From a virus: a stretch of DNA of 39,713 nt. Numbering within the stretch: the stretch's first letter is position 1; each line of letters starts with the position of its first letter. This document shows positions 1 to 39,713 of the stretch, piece after piece. The stretch lies in IMG/VR virus record IMGVR_UViG_3300031227_000005, one strand, 5' to 3'. A model generated the notes under the pieces. That model saw only the letters and a program-made list of their open reading frames with translations. It ran no database searches and was not told where the DNA came from. The translations under genes were made by a program, and so were the position numbers.

Positions 1-127
1 CCACCAACTCTTACAAGATTCTCGCCGACACGCCGCAAGACTTCCACGTCGCCGGGATATCGTCGATTGTTGCACTCCGCGTTGGGGCCGCCGATGGCGT
101 GCTCCAGATACTGGAGATGCTTCCAGA
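1..127. repeat. Left copy of 127-bp direct terminal repeat (identical to 39587..39713)
   Basis: Base-by-base comparison shows 1..127 equals 39587..39713. The repeat ends exactly at both window edges. Confidence 0.97.
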
Positions 128-14703: not shown

Positions 14704-15909
14704 TTACGTCAACCCAAGATCGTACTGCTGTTCGGGTGCCTCATCTATCCGCTTGCGTGCCATCTCGCAATATTCTGGGTTCAACTCTATGCCTATGTAT
14801 CGCCTTCCGTGTGCCTTTGCTACCACCCCTACGGTACCAGACCCGTTGAACGGATCGAGGACGGTGCACGGTTGCGCGAACGGGTTGCCGCATTCACACG
14901 TAGGTTCCCACCCGGTTGTGGTTGACGTAACACACGGGCCGCGTCGCACGTCAAGCGTTCCGCCACCACCCTGCAAGTCTTCGCCGTTCTTGCCACTCGG
15001 TAGATTGCCAGCCTTGCCACTGCCAGACTCGAACGTCCGTGTTTTCTCGGTTACACGCGAGAACGGTGCGCCACACTTCACGCAACACCCTTTCTCTGAC
15101 GATCCAGCAAGCAGGCACGGCTCCACCAGCTTCGTCGGGAACGTGGCGAAGTGTGCCTCTGCGTATGGTTGTGTGGCGATGTTCCAGACGGTGCGCTTGT
15201 TGCGACCATTTGCGTTTACGGATCGCTTGCCGTCCCATGCGTCTTTATTGTGTGCTCCTTTGTGGTACTCGTCTGGTGTGGCATTTTTTGAACGATCAGC
15301 ACCCCACAGCCCACCTTTCCCATCCGATGCCATCTGTTCCCGTATCGCATCTGCGTCGTAGAAATACCTGTCACGTTTCGTCAGTAGGAACATGTATTCG
15401 TGCGACTTCGTTGGTCGGTCGATCACACTCTCAGGCATGGGGTTAGGCTTCGCCCAGATCACGTCGGAACGCAACCACCACCCGTCGGCCTGCAACGCGA
15501 ACGCCACACGCCACGGGATACCCACGAGGTCTTTGTGCTTGATCGTATTCCCTGTGTGCTTCTGTGTGCCAGTTGCCTTGTAAGACATTCCACCTGCACG
15601 ACCATCCGCTCTATGATCCCCGTCGTTTCTACCTGCTGCGGGGTTCCCGTAACTATCACCCAGGTTCAACCAACACACGCCGTCGTCACGCAACACCCGG
15701 CGAACCTCGCGGAACACGCCAACCATGCGGGTGACATATTCGTCAGGCGTTGACTCCAACCCGATCTGACCGTCTTCACCGTAGTCACGCAACCCCCAAT
15801 ACGGCGGGCTGGTGATGACACAGTGCACCGACTCGTCAGGTATCTGTGAGAGTCCGTCGAGAACGTCCGCGTTGATGATTGTGGTCATGCTGTCCACTTG
15901 AACCTCCAT
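14704..15909 (-). CDS. DNA methyltransferase, N4-cytosine/N6-adenine family (beta-class motif order)
   Basis: Motif IV (ITSPPYWGLRDYG) lies near the N-terminus and motif I (VLDPFNGSGTVGVVA) near the C-terminus. A Cys-rich segment (CCVKCGAPF ... CECG) lies between them. An alternative start is the ATG at 15888. Confidence 0.85.
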   Translation of the reverse strand: MEVQVDSMTTIINADVLDGLSQIPDESVHCVITSPPYWGLRDYGEDGQIGLESTPDEYVTRMVGVFREVRRVLRDDGVCWLNLGDSYGNPAAGRNDGDHRADGRAGGMSYKATGTQKHTGNTIKHKDLVGIPWRVAFALQADGWWLRSDVIWAKPNPMPESVIDRPTKSHEYMFLLTKRDRYFYDADAIREQMASDGKGGLWGADRSKNATPDEYHKGAHNKDAWDGKRSVNANGRNKRTVWNIATQPYAEAHFATFPTKLVEPCLLAGSSEKGCCVKCGAPFSRVTEKTRTFESGSGKAGNLPSGKNGEDLQGGGGTLDVRRGPCVTSTTTGWEPTCECGNPFAQPCTVLDPFNGSGTVGVVAKAHGRRYIGIELNPEYCEMARKRIDEAPEQQYDLGLT

Positions 15910-16793: not shown

Positions 16794-17534
16794 TTACTCG
16801 TGGATCGGGATATCCTTGATCTGCAGAACGATGTTCATGATCTTCCCGGTGTCTAGCGAACCAAGGGCACACTTGAACTTTTCGTGGACCATGGCTTCAA
16901 CGTCAACAGACGAGATTTTGCGGGCCTTCGCCTCGGTTTCGAGCGTGTCTAGTGCGGCGTTTCGCTTGGAGTCGTCGCCGGGTTTCTGTGCTGGTTCGCG
17001 ATTCTGAGGCTGTCCGCCGTCAGGGTTCGTGCTTCCTGGACGGTTGCGGTTCGGCGGTGGTTCGTTGTCGTGGTTCGTTCGCTCCACGTCCTCGCCGCCG
17101 CCGTTGATGTTGAACGTCTGGCAGACGCTCACCTTGAACGCCGACGTGTGGCCCTTGTTGCTCTGCTTGTCGCCAGTGTCGGCACCTTGCCCCATGCATA
17201 TCGTATAGACGTACGAACCGTCGGTGGTGGAAATGTAACGGTGCTCGACGACTATCTCGGTAATCACCATCGATCCAGAAGGGCTTGGATAGTGTGTAGT
17301 GAATTCAGGGTGCAGTATCGGCTGGATGAAGATTCCAGCAGTCTTGAGCGGTTCGTGGATCGCCTCCTGGATGTCGTCGATGGAGCGGTACTTGAAACGA
17401 GGACCGGATTCGGTCTCCGTTTTCTTACCGAGTGCCTTGATGAGATTGAACGCGACGCCCATTTTCTGGTGTATGTCGCCTTCGGTGCCGTGTCGTGGAG
17501 TCGTTGTGAGATCCGGTGGGTTAGCGTTGTCCAT
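16794..17534 (-). CDS. erf: ERF-family single-strand annealing recombinase
   Basis: Starts at the internal ATG (MDNANPP) with GAGG 5 nt upstream. FKYRSIDDIQEAIHEPLKTAGI and GDKQSNKGHTSAFKVSVCQTFNI parallel P22 Erf YKYRSCEDILEGVKPLL and ...TSSYARKYCLNGLFGI. Confidence 0.8.
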   Translation of the reverse strand: MDNANPPDLTTTPRHGTEGDIHQKMGVAFNLIKALGKKTETESGPRFKYRSIDDIQEAIHEPLKTAGIFIQPILHPEFTTHYPSPSGSMVITEIVVEHRYISTTDGSYVYTICMGQGADTGDKQSNKGHTSAFKVSVCQTFNINGGGEDVERTNHDNEPPPNRNRPGSTNPDGGQPQNREPAQKPGDDSKRNAALDTLETEAKARKISSVDVEAMVHEKFKCALGSLDTGKIMNIVLQIKDIPIHE

Positions 17535-17610
17535 GTTCGCCTCGGTGGTTGATGGTGTGTGGCCTGTCCTGACGCCCGCACCTGGCCAAGGGTGCGGAAG
17601 CTGGGACAGG

Positions 17611-18093
17611 TTACCAGCAATGCGTCTCTCCGTTGTGGTCCGCTTCATAGCGTGCACTGGCCAGATTGCCCATGTATCCTTTGATATTACGCGGTGTTGT
17701 GGAGACGCCATATGTGAAGTGCGGGTAGTATGGGAACATGCGACGCAATGAGCGTGGAAGACCGTCCGAAATCCATGCGGGGGAAGTATCGCCGAGGGTG
17801 TGGGTGTTCGTTGCTTCAATAGCTTCCGGGGTAGGACGTGCGAAGCGTCGGATGTTGAATCGGGGGAAGATACCCTGACGTGCGAATAGGACCAGTTCAC
17901 GTTCCGTAATGGGGTACGAATCATCACACATGCCACTGAGAGGGTATGGTAATTCTCTACGCCGTGATATGGTGCGTGCAAGTTCGTGTTCAATCTTCAT
18001 ACCGCATAGTTCGCTGTATGCGTTGCTTGCGCCGATGCCGTCTATACGGATGTATGCCGTGTAGATTTTGCGGATCGTCGTCATGCTCGTCAT
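17611..18093 (-). CDS. Hypothetical protein
   Basis: 160-aa ORF with GAGGA 8 nt upstream. It is the first gene after promoter P1. Confidence 0.5.
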   Translation of the reverse strand: MTSMTTIRKIYTAYIRIDGIGASNAYSELCGMKIEHELARTISRRRELPYPLSGMCDDSYPITERELVLFARQGIFPRFNIRRFARPTPEAIEATNTHTLGDTSPAWISDGLPRSLRRMFPYYPHFTYGVSTTPRNIKGYMGNLASARYEADHNGETHCW

Positions 18094-19717: not shown

Positions 19718-19768
19718 GCCGTCTCCGTTCGTGTGGGTTCGTCGGTCTCTCGTCGGTCAGTGGTGTAT

Positions 19769-19797
19769 ATAGTACGTGCCGGTGTATACCATGTCAA
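19769..19797 (-). promoter_or_regulatory. Sigma70-like promoter P2 (leftward early)
   Basis: On the minus strand: TTGACA, a 17-nt spacer (TGGTATACACCGGCACG), then TACTAT. Confidence 0.6.
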
Positions 19798-19853
19798 CAC
19801 TACGCCGTGAAATGATTCCGATAATATTCCATAGTGATACACACGGGGCGGTA

Positions 19854-19882
19854 TTGACATGATGTATACCAGTCCATACATT
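19854..19882 (+). promoter_or_regulatory. Sigma70-like promoter P3 (rightward early)
   Basis: TTGACA, a 17-nt spacer (TGATGTATACCAGTCCA), then TACATT. Confidence 0.5.
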
Positions 19883-19931
19883 CTATACAGCAGATAAAGA
19901 AATACCAACACGAACGAGAAAGGAACACAAG

Positions 19932-20642
19932 ATGAACTGGCATAGTCGATACGACCCTGAAACACGAGGGACGATCTACACGCTCACGTTGACACTACCA
20001 GGGACTGAGCCGATGAAAGAAGGCGAACGGGACGGCGCGTGCGGTGGGGAGTATGATTGCGAGCTAGAGCCGGATACCGGTTCCTCCGTTGTGTTGATTG
20101 TCGAAAAGCTGTGCGTGGCCGAACGCCGGGCATTGTTTACCGTGAGGCTACAGAACGAAAAGGATTCGCAATTCGACGGGATGGATATATGGGCATTCCG
20201 TATGTTCCTCGCTGGATGGTATCTCGCGGTTGCGATGAAATCCGAGGTTCCGTCTACTAAAGAACTGGACGTGTGGTTTAATGAATCCCGCGTGCTGGTT
20301 TTCGACGAATTCGGCAATATGGCAGACAAGACTCCATATCGTGGCGATTATCTGATCGTGTCCTCGTCCGGCGGCGCACTCGCGGAAGGATACCCGGAGA
20401 TCAGATGGGAGATCAGCGAAGCCCTCTGCGTTGACGACGATGAAGCAAAGCACCTGATGGACAATCCAGGGTACGGAGTGCCCACATCTGACTCTACGCG
20501 AATGAAGAACGGCGCGTGGATCAACTACTGGAGGATCCGCGCGACCGAGGCGCAGCTTGTGAACATGCAGGAACGAGACCCGAAGTGGACGCGGTGGCTC
20601 GTTGTCGATGCTGACTGGAAAGGATCAGACCATGAATGGTGA
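19932..20642 (+). CDS. Hypothetical protein, first rightward early gene
   Basis: 236-aa ORF with AAAGGA upstream. Confidence 0.55.
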   Translation: MNWHSRYDPETRGTIYTLTLTLPGTEPMKEGERDGACGGEYDCELEPDTGSSVVLIVEKLCVAERRALFTVRLQNEKDSQFDGMDIWAFRMFLAGWYLAVAMKSEVPSTKELDVWFNESRVLVFDEFGNMADKTPYRGDYLIVSSSGGALAEGYPEIRWEISEALCVDDDEAKHLMDNPGYGVPTSDSTRMKNGAWINYWRIRATEAQLVNMQERDPKWTRWLVVDADWKGSDHEW

Positions 20643-21707: not shown

Positions 21708-21736
21708 TTGACCTATGTATACACGAGATGTATACT
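21708..21736 (+). promoter_or_regulatory. Sigma70-like promoter P4
   Basis: TTGACC, a 17-nt spacer (TATGTATACACGAGATG), then TATACT. ATGTATAC occurs twice. Confidence 0.6.
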
Positions 21737-21768
21737 AATATCACGCACAACAACAAGGAGGCGACGAT

Positions 21769-21948
21769 ATGGCACTCAGGTCGAAACAGGTAAAGATGGA
21801 CGAGCATACGCGTTCCGTCTTGCAGGTTCTCGCGAAACGTATGCCGATCCCGAACGAGTCGGAGTTAATCAGGGACATGATCCACGCTCAGGCGAAGCGG
21901 GAGGGCGTAACGCGCATCGAAACAGAACTGCACGCTTCCGGGCGGTGA
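21769..21948 (+). CDS. Ribbon-helix-helix (CopG/Arc-like) DNA-binding protein, 59 aa
   Basis: Not in the ORF track. AAGGAGG lies 7 nt upstream of the ATG. The product MALRSKQVKMDEHTRSVLQVLAKRMPIPNESELIRDMIHAQAKREG fits a strand-helix-helix pattern. Confidence 0.65.
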   Translation: MALRSKQVKMDEHTRSVLQVLAKRMPIPNESELIRDMIHAQAKREGVTRIETELHASGR

Positions 21949-22011
21949 AACGAAGAAGCCCGCCGAGGTGCCGAGAAACACCAGGCGGGCCAGAACTGGA
22001 GTGCATGTTCC

Positions 22012-23082
22012 GTGAATGATACACCCATACCAGAAATAAGTCAACCACGCGCGTTCGTATACAGCAAGGCACCCGATATGATATTCGGTACTCCAGAATA
22101 CGATAACCTCTCGGAGACTGGCGGGTTCGTGTATCTATACTTGATTTACAGACTTGACAAAAACAGCCTCGCGGATCCTCCGATTATGGAGATAGCACGG
22201 GACACAAAGAAGTCGGTCCGCGAAGTGAAGCGTGGCATCCAGGAGCTAACCGCGTCCGGGTTGATTGACGTGCAAAAGAACGGTCGGAGGAATGTCTACA
22301 CCGTTATGTTCCCAGATGAGACCACGAAGCAAATAGGTGCCACACTGGCCTCTATTGCAAACACAACAGAGGCCACACCGGCACCTATTACACAAACAGG
22401 TGCCACACAGTCCTCAGTTGATATTACAACAGAGGCCACACCGGCACCTATCGCGGAAATAGGTGCCACACAGTCACCTATTAATCCCGAACAGGTGCCA
22501 CACCGGCACCTATCAGGACAGCAGGAGCTAGGACTAGGATTAGAACTAGAGCAAGGAGAGGAAGAGGACCGTAGCTCAGAGCACGGCCCATACGACGACG
22601 ACATGTCAAGTAATCGATACCGGACGTTTGGAGAGGACACGCCCGAGGAGTCACTGTCGAAACTGGTGTTGACCGAAGGCATGCAGAAGTTTTGCCGCAA
22701 GCACTTCGGCGAGTCTTCCGCCGCCGTCGAAAACTACTGGATTCAGTGCATGTTGTACGAGGCGAACGTTGACTCACGGTACAGGCCGTACAAAGAGACC
22801 GGCGTGATGATCTCGCGAATTATGCGTGCCTGGTTCAGGAAGGGCCACACGCCAGAGCGGTGCGTCGAGGTTATCCAGATCCACGTCGAGCGCATGAATG
22901 ATCCGGCGAAACGTCTCACGAAAAACCTCTCGTTCGTGGATGATTTTTTCAAGGGCGAGAAGCGACGCGCGAAGAACTCGAAAGGCATAGCGACCGAACC
23001 ACAACAGCAGGGCGAATACGCAACCGAAGCAGAGAAGTACGGCGGATCAGGCGGAACTGTTTCAACAGGCGGGTTCAGATGA
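22012..23082 (+). CDS. Replication initiator / replisome organiser (lambda O-like role) with an N-terminal winged helix
   Basis: A wHTH-like segment (IMEIARDTKKSVREVKRGIQELTASGLIDVQKNGRRNVYTV), internal iteron-like repeats and an acidic linker. It lies directly upstream of the DnaC-like loader. Confidence 0.65.
   Translation: MNDTPIPEISQPRAFVYSKAPDMIFGTPEYDNLSETGGFVYLYLIYRLDKNSLADPPIMEIARDTKKSVREVKRGIQELTASGLIDVQKNGRRNVYTVMFPDETTKQIGATLASIANTTEATPAPITQTGATQSSVDITTEATPAPIAEIGATQSPINPEQVPHRHLSGQQELGLGLELEQGEEEDRSSEHGPYDDDMSSNRYRTFGEDTPEESLSKLVLTEGMQKFCRKHFGESSAAVENYWIQCMLYEANVDSRYRPYKETGVMISRIMRAWFRKGHTPERCVEVIQIHVERMNDPAKRLTKNLSFVDDFFKGEKRRAKNSKGIATEPQQQGEYATEAEKYGGSGGTVSTGGFR
22335..22512. 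repeat. Iteron-like repeat array inside the initiator gene (candidate origin)
   Basis: The GCCACAC core occurs at 22339, 22372, 22402, 22435, 22465 and 22497, with spacings of 33, 30, 33, 30 and 32 nt. AGGTGCCACAC occurs 4 times. GGCCACACCGGCACCTAT occurs twice, plus one variant. The repeat unit is 63 bp. Confidence 0.7.
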
Positions 23083-23894
23083 TGACAAAGAGACGCGGAA
23101 AGACTACCAACACCGAGGAGTTATTCGGGAATACTGAGAGTATCCTGGATGCGATCAAGAACCACGTCGGCGGACCGCTGGATATCATCGATCGCGAGGA
23201 GAACCCGGAGGAGTATGAGAGACACCGGAACGCTCCGTCGGAATCGGATCAGACGTGGGTGAAGAGTTACCCGGAACGGGCGATGGTGGCCAGGTTGAAA
23301 AACGGGCGCGTGCCGGACGACTATCTGCACTCCAGACTTTCTAAGATGGTGTATCCTCCGGGGCCGAAATATATGATCCTCCGCCAGTGCCACGAAACAC
23401 TCATGAGATACGCGAAAAATCGCGAGTGGGAAAAACGCTGGTTGATCCTGCTCGGCGGAACAGGTACCGGTAAAACGAAAAGTGCCGTCGGGATCCTTCG
23501 TGCGTTTCTGCACTATGCGAACCCGAAGAATCGCGCACTGTTCGTGCCGGTGCGGACCTACCTCGACAACTGCAACAAGTGGAGCAACCACGCCACAACA
23601 GCACCGCGGGGATTCGACGAGATATCGAACGCGTCCGCCGTCCTCCTGGATGATCTCGGCGCGGAATCTGTAGACGAGAAGAACCGGTCACACATCGCTG
23701 AGGTTGTCAACGTGTGCTCTGCGTATCGTCGTCCGCTGATCATCACCAGTAACGCAAGTATCGGGCATTTTCTCGGCGATGAATCGGAGGGATGGCTGGA
23801 CGCCCGCACACGGTCCAGGTTACGCGAGGCGTCGTTGATCCTGACGCTCGACGGACCAGACTACCGAACACAAGAAACGGAGGAATCAACGTGA
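23079..23894 (+). CDS. DnaC/IstB-like AAA+ helicase loader
   Basis: Walker A (GGTGTGKTKS), Walker B (AVLLDDLGAE) and sensor-1-like LIITSN. Confidence 0.8.
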   Translation: MMTKRRGKTTNTEELFGNTESILDAIKNHVGGPLDIIDREENPEEYERHRNAPSESDQTWVKSYPERAMVARLKNGRVPDDYLHSRLSKMVYPPGPKYMILRQCHETLMRYAKNREWEKRWLILLGGTGTGKTKSAVGILRAFLHYANPKNRALFVPVRTYLDNCNKWSNHATTAPRGFDEISNASAVLLDDLGAESVDEKNRSHIAEVVNVCSAYRRPLIITSNASIGHFLGDESEGWLDARTRSRLREASLILTLDGPDYRTQETEEST

Positions 23895-24124
23895 TCAGAT
23901 TCGAGAGAATCGCACGCATGGAGGCGAACAACGCGCGGATGTATCTGTATATCGAAAAACACATGAATCAACACGGGTATTTTCCATCTGTCGAGAAGAT
24001 GGTCGCCGGTCTGGACCTGAGCGCGAGATCTGTTCGCCGAACTCTGAAGGCGATGCACGACGCCGGGTTGATAGTGCGAGATCTTCGCGGGAACTTTACC
24101 AGCCTTCATGAGTTGAAAGTCTGA
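23891..24124 (+). CDS. LexA-N-terminal-like winged-helix DNA-binding protein (77 aa)
   Basis: The GTG at 23891 has GGAGGA 6 nt upstream and overlaps the upstream stop. YIEKHMNQHGYFPSVEKMVAGLDLSARSVRRTLKAMHDAGLI resembles the LexA DNA-binding domain. Confidence 0.55.
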   Translation: MIRFERIARMEANNARMYLYIEKHMNQHGYFPSVEKMVAGLDLSARSVRRTLKAMHDAGLIVRDLRGNFTSLHELKV

Positions 24125-35713: not shown

Positions 35714-36598
35714 ATGGCCGTTGACGTCTACACGTTCCAACTCAGGAACACGCCCTACCGGATCGCAGAGGGGGCTGTTGCCGCCGCCACGCTGACAGCG
35801 GGCACGCTCATTGCACACGAGGACTTGATCGGTATTGTCAACCAGGACACCGCGATCACCGAAACGTTCGGGTTGATCTATCAGGCCGACAAGATCGTTC
35901 TGCCGATTGCCACCGTCAGTGGTTCTGCGGTCGTTGCTGGTGATCGTCTGTACTTCGACGAAGCGAACAACCAGTTGACGCAGACAGCTACCACGGACAT
36001 CTGGTGTGCAATCGCCCTCGAACCCGCCGCGCTCACCGAAGTTGAGGTTACGTGTTATCTGGACTCCACGATGGAAGACAGCGACATGTTGGCCGCACTC
36101 GCCACGAACACGGCTGGTATCGCTACCAACGTGACCGACATTGGCGACAATGTTACCGACATTGCGACTAACGTGTCGGACATCCTGGCCAACACAGCAC
36201 TCGCGAACGACGTGTCGAAGTTGCACGTTCACACGCAGGTTGTCACCACGTCCGAACTGAACGCGAACGAAGTGCTCGTTGCTGGTGTCGTCGGTAGGAC
36301 GTACACCATCCACGGATTCCGTCTGGCATTCGCCGGTGCGTTTGCGACGTTGACCGACGTTCGTATCTCTGATACGTTCAGCACCGAAGTTGATGCGGTG
36401 ACGGTCGCTGTCGCTGCTATCGGTTCCGGTGGTGAGATCATTTCTGACGCTCTGGTGATTGCCAACGTTACCATCGGTGCTGGTTTCGACGCGGCCCTGA
36501 CCGTAGATGAGGGTATCCAGCTTCGCAAGACCGGAAGCGATGGAACTGTCGGAACAGCGGTCACGGTCTCGGTTTTCTACACGTACACTGACGCCTAA
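35714..36598 (+). CDS. Head decoration protein (DUF2190-like N-terminus) with a heptad stalk and a C-terminal beta domain
   Basis: It sits directly before the MCP, like lambda D. The N-terminus is ...AGTLIAHEDLIGIVNQD...AVVAGDRLYF. Six heptads follow, then a beta-rich C-terminus. Confidence 0.55.
   Translation: MAVDVYTFQLRNTPYRIAEGAVAAATLTAGTLIAHEDLIGIVNQDTAITETFGLIYQADKIVLPIATVSGSAVVAGDRLYFDEANNQLTQTATTDIWCAIALEPAALTEVEVTCYLDSTMEDSDMLAALATNTAGIATNVTDIGDNVTDIATNVSDILANTALANDVSKLHVHTQVVTTSELNANEVLVAGVVGRTYTIHGFRLAFAGAFATLTDVRISDTFSTEVDAVTVAVAAIGSGGEIISDALVIANVTIGAGFDAALTVDEGIQLRKTGSDGTVGTAVTVSVFYTYTDA
36098..36223 (+). repeat. Six in-frame heptad (21-nt) repeats
   Basis: LATNTAG IATNVTD IGDNVTD IATNVSD ILANTAL ANDVSKL. 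At the DNA level, three adjacent related 21-mers lie at 36119..36181. Confidence 0.8.
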
Positions 36599-39196: not shown

Positions 39197-39713
39197 CGTA
39201 CGTGCAATACCTGGACGCGATCCAGTCTGGCCTACCCGTAGCACTGACGAACGGCACAACGGCGAACATCTCCGTCAAGCTACCGCAAACAACGCGGTAT
39301 ATCACATTCCTCCCGAGTATTGCCGTCGATCTCGGGAAGTTCTATTCGACGAAACAGGCAAACGACTCGTTCGAGTTGCGCGCCTTCGTCGAGTCTGGCG
39401 ATCTGGTCGCGTCCACGGGAACCATCCCGATGCACGACGACAGCCCTGCATTCGCGCGGTCAGTGGCATTGATCAACCACGCGGTGACCGACGCGTCAAC
39501 CGCCGCAACGTTGACCGGTAGAGCGTTCGAGGTTCGCTTGCAGTGCGACATCGACGCTTACATTGGGTTCGACGTGGCAGCCGCCGCCACCAACTCTTAC
39601 AAGATTCTCGCCGACACGCCGCAAGACTTCCACGTCGCCGGGATATCGTCGATTGTTGCACTCCGCGTTGGGGCCGCCGATGGCGTGCTCCAGATACTGG
39701 AGATGCTTCCAGA
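39193..39713 (+). CDS. Hypothetical protein of the head/neck module. The ORF runs off the right edge and closes at 138..140 once the repeat is collapsed (about 177 aa).
   Basis: ATG at 39193 overlaps the upstream stop (ATGA). The frame stays open to 39713 and, through the repeat, reaches TGA at 138..140. That stop overlaps the GTG of the next gene (GTGA). Confidence 0.6.
   Translation, partial: MTYVQYLDAIQSGLPVALTNGTTANISVKLPQTTRYITFLPSIAVDLGKFYSTKQANDSFELRAFVESGDLVASTGTIPMHDDSPAFARSVALINHAVTDASTAATLTGRAFEVRLQCDIDAYIGFDVAAAATNSYKILADTPQDFHVAGISSIVALRVGAADGVLQILEMLP
39587..39713. repeat. Right copy of 127-bp direct terminal repeat
   Basis: Identical to 1..127. An overlap of 127 is typical of de Bruijn assembler circular overlaps. 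Confidence 0.97.

Follow-up and report, generated by a model that had tools for sequence, protein, structure and literature searches.

The virus record IMGVR_UViG_3300031227_000005 of IMG/VR (39,713 nt; "the window" below is this whole stretch of DNA) carries, inside a predicted replication initiator gene, an array of six phased repeats (22333-22513) and, just beyond it, a CTAG-rich polypurine element (22523-22567). Together, the array and the element probably constitute a phage theta-type origin of replication of the lambda style, embedded in the linker-coding part of the gene for its own initiator. An earlier reading of the same letters, made without database searches (the sequence-only reading), had suggested a lambda-O-style internal origin at this place. 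Our computational analysis supports that suggestion: the repeats are phased dyads unique to this site, one of them is read in a different frame, the gene encodes a predicted O-like winged helix-turn-helix (wHTH) domain and is followed by a helicase-loader gene, and relatives carry arrays of their own.

Table 1 Features of the putative origin region and its neighbours (positions in the window; aa, amino acids; RHH, ribbon-helix-helix)
Feature	Position	Strand	Description
Promoter-like site	21708..21736	+	TTGACC-17-TATACT, from a consensus scan; overlapped by TGTATAC boxes
RHH-like gene	21769..21948	+	59 aa; just upstream of the initiator gene; weak Pfam RHH_1 match (E=0.01)
Replication initiator gene	22012..23082	+	356 aa; wHTH aa 17-100, disordered linker aa 106-206, helical C-terminal domain aa 207-324
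Iteron 1	22333..22355	+	ATAGGTGCCACACTGGCCTCTAT; frame 0
Iteron 2	22366..22388	+	ACAGAGGCCACACCGGCACCTAT; frame 0
Iteron 3	22396..22418	+	ACAGGTGCCACACAGTCCTCAGT; frame 0; most degenerate copy
Iteron 4	22429..22451	+	ACAGAGGCCACACCGGCACCTAT; frame 0
Iteron 5	22459..22481	+	ATAGGTGCCACACAGTCACCTAT; frame 0
Iteron 6	22491..22513	+	ACAGGTGCCACACCGGCACCTAT; both arms match the consensus; frame +2; nearest to the CTAG patch
CTAG-rich, hexamer-phased polypurine element	22523..22567	+	TAGGAC TAGGAT TAGAAC TAGAGC AAGGAG AGGAAG AGG; candidate unwinding or entry site
DnaC/IstB-type AAA+ helicase-loader gene	23079..23894	+	4-nt overlap with the initiator stop codon

Six palindromic iterons in helical phase

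The six GCCACAC cores listed by the sequence-only reading are all where it had placed them (22339, 22372, 22402, 22435, 22465 and 22497). Each core belongs to a longer unit described by the degenerate 23-bp pattern AyAGrkGCCACACnGkCmyCTAT, which matches six units on the + strand and has no match outside the array in the whole genome, with 0.01 matches expected from shuffled genomes. The spacing from unit to unit is 33/30/33/30/32 bp (mean ~31.6 bp, ~3 helical turns), which places the units at cumulative positions of 0, 3.14, 6.0, 9.14, 12.0 and 15.05 turns at 10.5 bp/turn, a phase deviation of at most 0.14 turn. Sites that follow one another at 30-33 bp, about three turns, as the cores had been described, therefore lie on one face of the helix. 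The longer shared blocks AGGTGCCACAC (4 copies) and CCACACCGGCACCTAT (3 copies) were counted correctly in the earlier reading and are confined to the array region, and both peptides that it quoted for the repeat unit are right. Its 63-bp unit repeated in frame holds in part: Tandem Repeats Finder reports, for 22330-22515, a period of 63 bp (3.0 copies, 77% matches) besides one of 30 bp (5.8 copies), and copies 1-5 are in frame, but copy 6 is in frame +2.

Two features go beyond what had been described, namely the palindromic nature of the units and the frame shift of the last one. Each unit is a 23-bp imperfect palindrome, AGGTGCC-ACACC-GGCACCT, of which the left arm (AGGTGCC) is kept in the odd-numbered units, the right arm (GGCACCT) in units 2 and 4, and both arms in unit 6. 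The frame-0 units encode peptides of the form (I/T)GAT... or TEATPAPI. Unit 6, which begins 32 bp after unit 5, fits the degenerate pattern with 0 mismatches although it is translated in another frame, as EQVPHRHLS, so that VPHRHLS stands in place of GATPAPI. Because one DNA word is maintained in two frames and has dyad symmetry, it is the DNA, not the peptide, that selection appears to have acted on. The array thereby has the sequence features of iteron-type theta origins in general, at least three phased direct repeats kept as DNA rather than as peptide. Outside the array, AGGTGCC half-sites (for example at 21966) occur at chance frequency only, and an iteron 17-mer searched against IMG/VR gave 8 single matches in unrelated contigs, which we take as chance.

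The repeats fall in the disordered linker of a predicted O-like initiator

The iterons correspond to aa 108-167 and the CTAG patch to aa 171-185 of the predicted initiator, and both lie wholly in its predicted disordered linker. In the AlphaFold2 model, the predicted local distance difference test scores (pLDDT) are 71-92 for the wHTH domain, ~31 for the linker and 81-94 for the helical C-terminal domain; the N-terminal domain folds as H-H-H-beta-beta at aa 35-98, with pLDDT of 81-92. The match to the profile PHROG 391 ("replication initiation O-like"; 3.6e-6) is restricted to aa 43-161, in the wHTH and linker. Pfam HTH_36 (PF13730) matches four of five members of the family, the best at 8.2e-11, whereas Phage_rep_O gave no match to the window protein in an hmmscan against Pfam-A at E<=0.1, which returned only HVO_A0114 and HTH_36.

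Foldseek searches of the PDB returned generic winged helices, none at E<=0.001; the weak fold likenesses of the wHTH include RepA_N initiators (4pql/4pt7) and AspA, the centromere-binding protein of pNOB8 (E ~2e-3). Among the viral models of BFVD, 72 fold matches were obtained at E<=1e-3, many of them spanning both domains and most of them phage models annotated as "helix-turn-helix", "replisome organizer", "replicon initiation protein", "replication protein O" (2.2e-4) or "GpO N-terminal". The C-terminal domain has no Pfam family, and its one match among PDB sequences was judged spurious. By its profile matches, the protein falls outside the lambda O family as defined by sequence, yet it appears to work like a member.

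Arrays of different sequence recur in relatives

A HMMER search of 1.84 billion representative proteins gave 11 matches to the initiator, and only three of these contain the C-terminal domain: P0002 (1e-29), P0003 (3e-12) and P0006. We compared the DNA of the three corresponding loci (L012, L010 and L013, respectively) and of L016, the locus of the wHTH-only relative P0010. In L012, whose initiator is 33% identical to that of the window, five copies of AATGGGTCCAGTGTGAACCCTAT cover aa 115-164 at spacings of 33, 33, 30 and 30, all in frame 0. In L010 (23% identical), five copies of CAAGGGACACACTGTCCC, with the dyad GGGACA-CAC-TGTCCC, cover aa 105-155 at spacings of 34, 32, 31 and 32, in frames 0,1,0,1,0; as the frame changes, the encoded peptide alternates between DTPQGTHCP and SRDTLSHD. 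L016, which encodes an HTH_36 protein, has seven dyads resembling AAAGGGTGCCAC-n4-GTGGCACCCTTT in the linker (1271-1503), spaced 44, 43, 33, 33, 32 and 22 and in frames 2,1,2,2,2,1,2. The half-site GGTGCC is common to L016 and the window, and the last L016 unit is its best palindrome, after which come GAATATATCC and an extended run of purines.

The arrays of L012, L010 and L016 occupy the same position in the gene as that of the window, and two of these three (L010 and L016) span two frames, as the annotated iterons of lambda cover several. The sequence-only reading had named the absence of the repeats from otherwise conserved homologues as a reason to abandon it. What we find is mixed in this respect: three relatives have arrays of their own at the same place, but L013, which has a short linker, has no array and contains one 27-nt imperfect palindrome that includes GGGTGCC. 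The order RHH-initiator-loader is kept in L010 and L012, and a loader follows the initiator in L013 as well. The L016 array suggests that linker iterons may be common among HTH_36 initiators.

Closer relatives of the initiator were not found by blastn and tblastn against 50,697 phage records, by tblastn against plasmids, or by protein scans of IMG/VR and JGI metagenomes; in a word-indexed search covering 5.8 billion proteins, the query and P0006 were the only matches. The gene occurs in one other public contig, L001, which is identical to the window over 6 kb.

A conserved CTAG-rich element abuts the array

Three CTAG sites lie within 22 bp directly downstream of the array (22528, 22534 and 22546), in agreement with the sequence-only reading. 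Its description of this stretch as AT-richer was not borne out: the GC content is 0.52 (22514-22573) against a genome mean of 0.56, and the patch is not among the low-GC windows; it is purine-rich and of low stability instead. This period-6 repeat consists of 75-78% purines and ranks first in this respect among the 50-mers of the genome (78%, top 0.015%); its nearest-neighbour duplex stability (z=+2.3) places it among the least stable 1.2% of 40-mers. CTAG itself is depleted genome-wide, with 26 sites observed and 55 expected, and all 100 shuffles contained more. The depletion coexists with a phage-encoded N6/N4 DNA methyltransferase (14704-15909, - strand).

In a codon alignment of the whole gene with L012, the identity is 0.32 for amino acids, 0.45 for nucleotides and 0.36 for third positions. 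The best-conserved 10-codon window of this alignment is aa 175-184 (nt 22534-22563), where nucleotide identity reaches 0.83 and third positions agree 10/10; it sits in the disordered linker. Leu is encoded in the patch by CTA, CTA, TTA and CTA in turn, codons with a genome usage of 9% (CTA) and 3% (TTA). DNA alignment of the window and L012 gives the common pattern CTAGGA(C/T)TAG...AAC(A/T)AGAGCAAGGA; a search for the conserved pattern found nothing in IMG/VR, and the metagenomes returned only the L012 phage again. CTAG clusters lie within 60 bp of the last iteron in the window, L010 and L012 (Poisson P of ~1e-5, 1e-3 and 1e-3, respectively), and the two CTAGs of L010 are in different frames. 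Judged by these alignments and codons, the CTAG patch is under constraint at the DNA level. The architecture of the region, its conservation as DNA and its recurrence in relatives are established features of the sequences compared.

Rather than melting passively, the element might act through its specific sequence, as the substitute in this initiator family for a classical AT-rich unwinding region. We hold this to be unlikely but allow it, because no other stretch of the gene is as well conserved as DNA against L012, the Leu codons of the patch are rare ones and the CTAGs of L010 are in different frames. Two roles of this kind can be proposed from pattern resemblance. The element may be a single-strand track similar to the DnaA-trio (TAG-NAN), read by an AAA+ protein such as the DnaC-like loader or host DnaA. 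It may alternatively offer start triplets to primase, since palindromic CTAG presents d(CTA) on both strands, and d(CTA) is a start site common to Firmicute and Proteobacterial DnaG (PMC2978363). Apart from this reading, the element may be a melting site that is not AT-rich and exploits weak TA and AG/GA stacking.

The L012 gene has, ~30 nt downstream of its conserved CTAG patch, the sequence GTAGTAGTAGC (2779-2790) with three consecutive TAG triplets; it equals the DnaA-trio consensus but also encodes a Ser run and may be due to chance. An internal translation start behind the Shine-Dalgarno-like AAGGAG of the window patch was considered and rejected, as the nearest in-frame start, M198, is ~50 nt off and has no ribosome-binding site of its own.

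Proposed mechanism and competing explanations

We infer initiator binding, melting, loader recruitment and origin activity from this arrangement as follows. Dimers of the N-terminal winged-helix domain would bind the six dyad 23-bp iterons through the half-sites AGGTGCC and GGCACCT, and the sites, aligned on one face, would assemble a nucleoprotein complex resembling the O-some. The complex would destabilize the adjoining low-stability CTAG/polypurine element, and the helical C-terminal domain would recruit the product of the next gene, the DnaC-like loader, in complex with the replicative helicase of the host. The remaining steps would be carried out by the host replisome; no match to helicase, primase or polymerase families was found among the window open reading frames (ORFs) scanned (36 against PHROGs, 16 of these also against Pfam).

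Several observations weigh against an origin at this place. The family is very small, so that comparative support amounts to 3-4 lineages, and it offers no close relatives for a synonymous-rate test on the iterons. One of its members, P0006, lacks an array; its locus has a single palindrome (TAACAATGGGTGCCGTGAACCGGCAAA / TTTGCCGG..., L013 1011-1065), on a contig of only 2.3 kb, and an array elsewhere is possible. The HTH_36 match of the window protein (22 bits) is under the 25-bit cut-off. At 52% GC, the patch is unlike a classical unwinding element, and the least stable 40-mer near the gene is found elsewhere, at 22125-22164 (z=+3.3, lowest 0.07% of the genome), 208 bp upstream of the array and within the wHTH-coding part. 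Should the CTAG patch not be what unwinds, melting could take place in this segment instead. GC skew climbs monotonically with the direction of transcription and gives no origin signal.

The iterons could be genuine initiator sites that serve autoregulation, copy control or incompatibility through titration or handcuffing, with the origin elsewhere, for example in an AT-rich intergenic region. Plasmid iterons are known to act in control too, less stable DNA exists at 22125-22164, 21714-21753 and 19766-19955, and one homologue (L013) is without the array. We nevertheless regard a control-only role as quite improbable: the AT-rich sites contain neither an iteron copy nor any other repeat family, the conserved CTAG/polypurine element abuts the array in three lineages, and the layout is that of lambda, whose array is the origin (PMC7466680). 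Binding by some other protein, either the small wHTH protein encoded at 23792-24124 or a host factor, has a still smaller chance of being correct; the repeats would then act in partition, like a centromere, or as a roadblock to transcription. AspA of pNOB8 is indeed among the best, though weak (E ~2e-3), PDB fold matches of the wHTH, and two genes further downstream another HTH_36-like protein is encoded. Yet the scanned ORFs include no ParA/ParB-type gene, L010 and L012 possess arrays although the small wHTH gene was not seen after their loaders, and the half-site GGTGCC shared between the window and the wHTH-only L016 ties the site to the initiator domain.

The repeats might also represent a recently duplicated, low-complexity peptide linker devoid of any function as DNA, its copies being identical through slippage or duplication. 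In favour of such a linker, copies 1-5 repeat in frame with the 63-bp unit, the segment that they encode is predicted to be disordered, and L012 has all five of its copies in frame. We find this the hardest explanation to credit. Copy 6 preserves the DNA word in another frame, and L010 and L016 alternate frames as lambda does. Every unit is a dyad, which a peptide repeat does not need, and the spacing tracks helical phase. Arrays that differ in sequence occupy the same position in proteins only 23-33% identical.

Comparison with known origins

The embedded origin as a design is already known from lambda, Stx phages and SPP1; what is new here is the protein family. In lambda and the Stx phages, the origin lies in the middle of O and consists of four or six iterons and an AT-rich tract (PMC7466680), the six of the Stx phages equalling the number in the window (PMC7466680). 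Synonymous mutations in the iterons abolish origin function, and such recoding of iterons has been carried out for phage P27 (PMC7466680). The window resembles lambda in having the presumed origin mid-gene, in the linker between a predicted N-terminal DNA-binding domain and a presumed C-terminal partner-binding domain. As in lambda, the iterons are dyads in helical phase that are read in more than one frame, purine-rich DNA follows the last of them, and a loader gene comes immediately next. In the lambda record NC_001416, four iterons are annotated inside O at aa 117-145, spaced 20, 24 and 23 bp and in frames 0,2,2,1, and a purine-rich tract of 26% GC comes after the last one. The differences are equally clear: the window units are 23 bp long and ~31.6 bp apart (3 turns), whereas the annotated lambda sites measure 18 bp and are ~22 bp apart (2 turns); the flank is CTAG-rich with 52% GC instead of 26%; the initiator, unlike lambda O, does not match Pfam Phage_rep_O; and the downstream loader is not of the lambda P type but a DnaC/IstB AAA+ protein, functionally analogous but of a different family.

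The oriL of Bacillus phage SPP1 is embedded in gene 38 (PMC5737612) and, like the presumed origin of the window, combines repeats (AB boxes) and an unwinding element inside the initiator gene (G38P) with a helicase-loader gene next to it (PMC5737612). SPP1 also has its own helicase, G40P, and none was detected among the window ORFs scanned, which sets the window apart from the G38P-G39P-G40P module. The SPP1 unwinding element is AT-rich, the candidate element of the window is not, and no sequence relationship to SPP1 was found. Iteron plasmids of the RepA, TrfA and pi type share with the presumed origin of the window direct repeats beside an unwinding element and a winged-helix initiator encoded in cis; their iterons, however, are usually outside the rep gene and their initiators are WH1-WH2 tandems, whereas here the array is inside the ORF and a single wHTH is joined to an unrelated helical C-terminal domain. 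The DnaA-trio of bacterial oriC, whose consensus is 3'-GAT-5' (PMC8287927), likewise consists of phased NAN triplets rich in 5'-TAG-3' (3'-GAT-5') beside double-strand initiator sites, and the triplets of the window read TAG GAC TAG GAT TAG AAC TAG. This likeness is one of pattern only. DnaA boxes in the window occur at chance level, with none near the array, and the phage initiator has no AAA+ domain.

The analysis predicts a concrete origin for a phage lineage that is uncultivated and has an initiator almost without relatives in the databases, and it extends the origin-inside-initiator design to another, undescribed protein family with three-turn instead of two-turn spacing. One DNA word in differing frames, combined with dyad symmetry, provides a computational criterion that separates iterons from peptide repeats. 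A specialist might be surprised only by the conserved CTAG element, which is not AT-rich and could inform how origins are melted or primed in the absence of an AT-rich tract. A candidate minimal replicon comprises 22.3-22.6 kb together with the genes at 22012-23894.

Neighbouring genes and genome setting

The loader gene is assigned to the DnaC/IstB AAA+ family by profile and by its Walker A motif: Pfam IstB_IS21 scores 29.5 bits against a 24.1-bit cut-off, PHROG 50 ("DnaC-like helicase loader") matches at 1.5e-22, and in the motif GGTGTGKT the residues G126, G129, G131 and K132 are invariant across the four loci. Just after it, a small winged-helix protein is encoded at 23792-24124 (probably 23891-24124), matching HTH_36 (25.8 bits) and LexA_DNA_bind (24.1 bits); its likeness to the initiator wHTH is weak (24% identity, E=0.002), and no such gene was seen after the loader in L010 or L012. 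The protein could act as a competitor or regulator at the iterons. Upstream of the initiator gene, the position of the RHH-like gene is kept in L010 and L012, and an alignment of the three upstream ORFs has 8 invariant columns.

The promoter-like site is, by its match to consensus, a probable promoter of an RHH-initiator-loader operon, whose transcription would read through the array. The heptamer TGTATAC is enriched genome-wide (10 observed, 2.45 expected), often within the palindrome TGTATACA, at positions that include 18153, 19345, 19783, 19863, 21716/21717, 21729 and 22057. It clusters in the divergent early promoter region and at the promoter-like site upstream of the RHH, initiator and loader genes, and the boxes are probably operators of a phage repressor or of an RHH regulator.

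The ends of the window (1-127 and 39587-39713) form an identical 127-bp direct repeat, which marks it as a complete assembly of ~39.6 kb, either circular or terminally redundant. It is the genome of a tailed phage, encoding a large terminase (TerL), a lambda-J-like central tail fibre, a tape measure and minor head proteins. A search with TerL for a host gave no genome match, and the identity of TerL to phage records does not exceed 43%. Neither an integrase, a repressor family nor a partition gene was recognized among the ORFs scanned, and Rfam and tRNA scans found nothing. The methyltransferase gene and a gene for an Erf-like annealing protein (16794-17993, - strand) belong to a leftward block, and the rightward early block begins at the divergent promoter region near 19.8 kb. 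Within the late-gene region, an imperfect tandem repeat (CAACGTGACCGACATTGCGA) with a period of 21 and 2.8 copies is present at 36127-36183.

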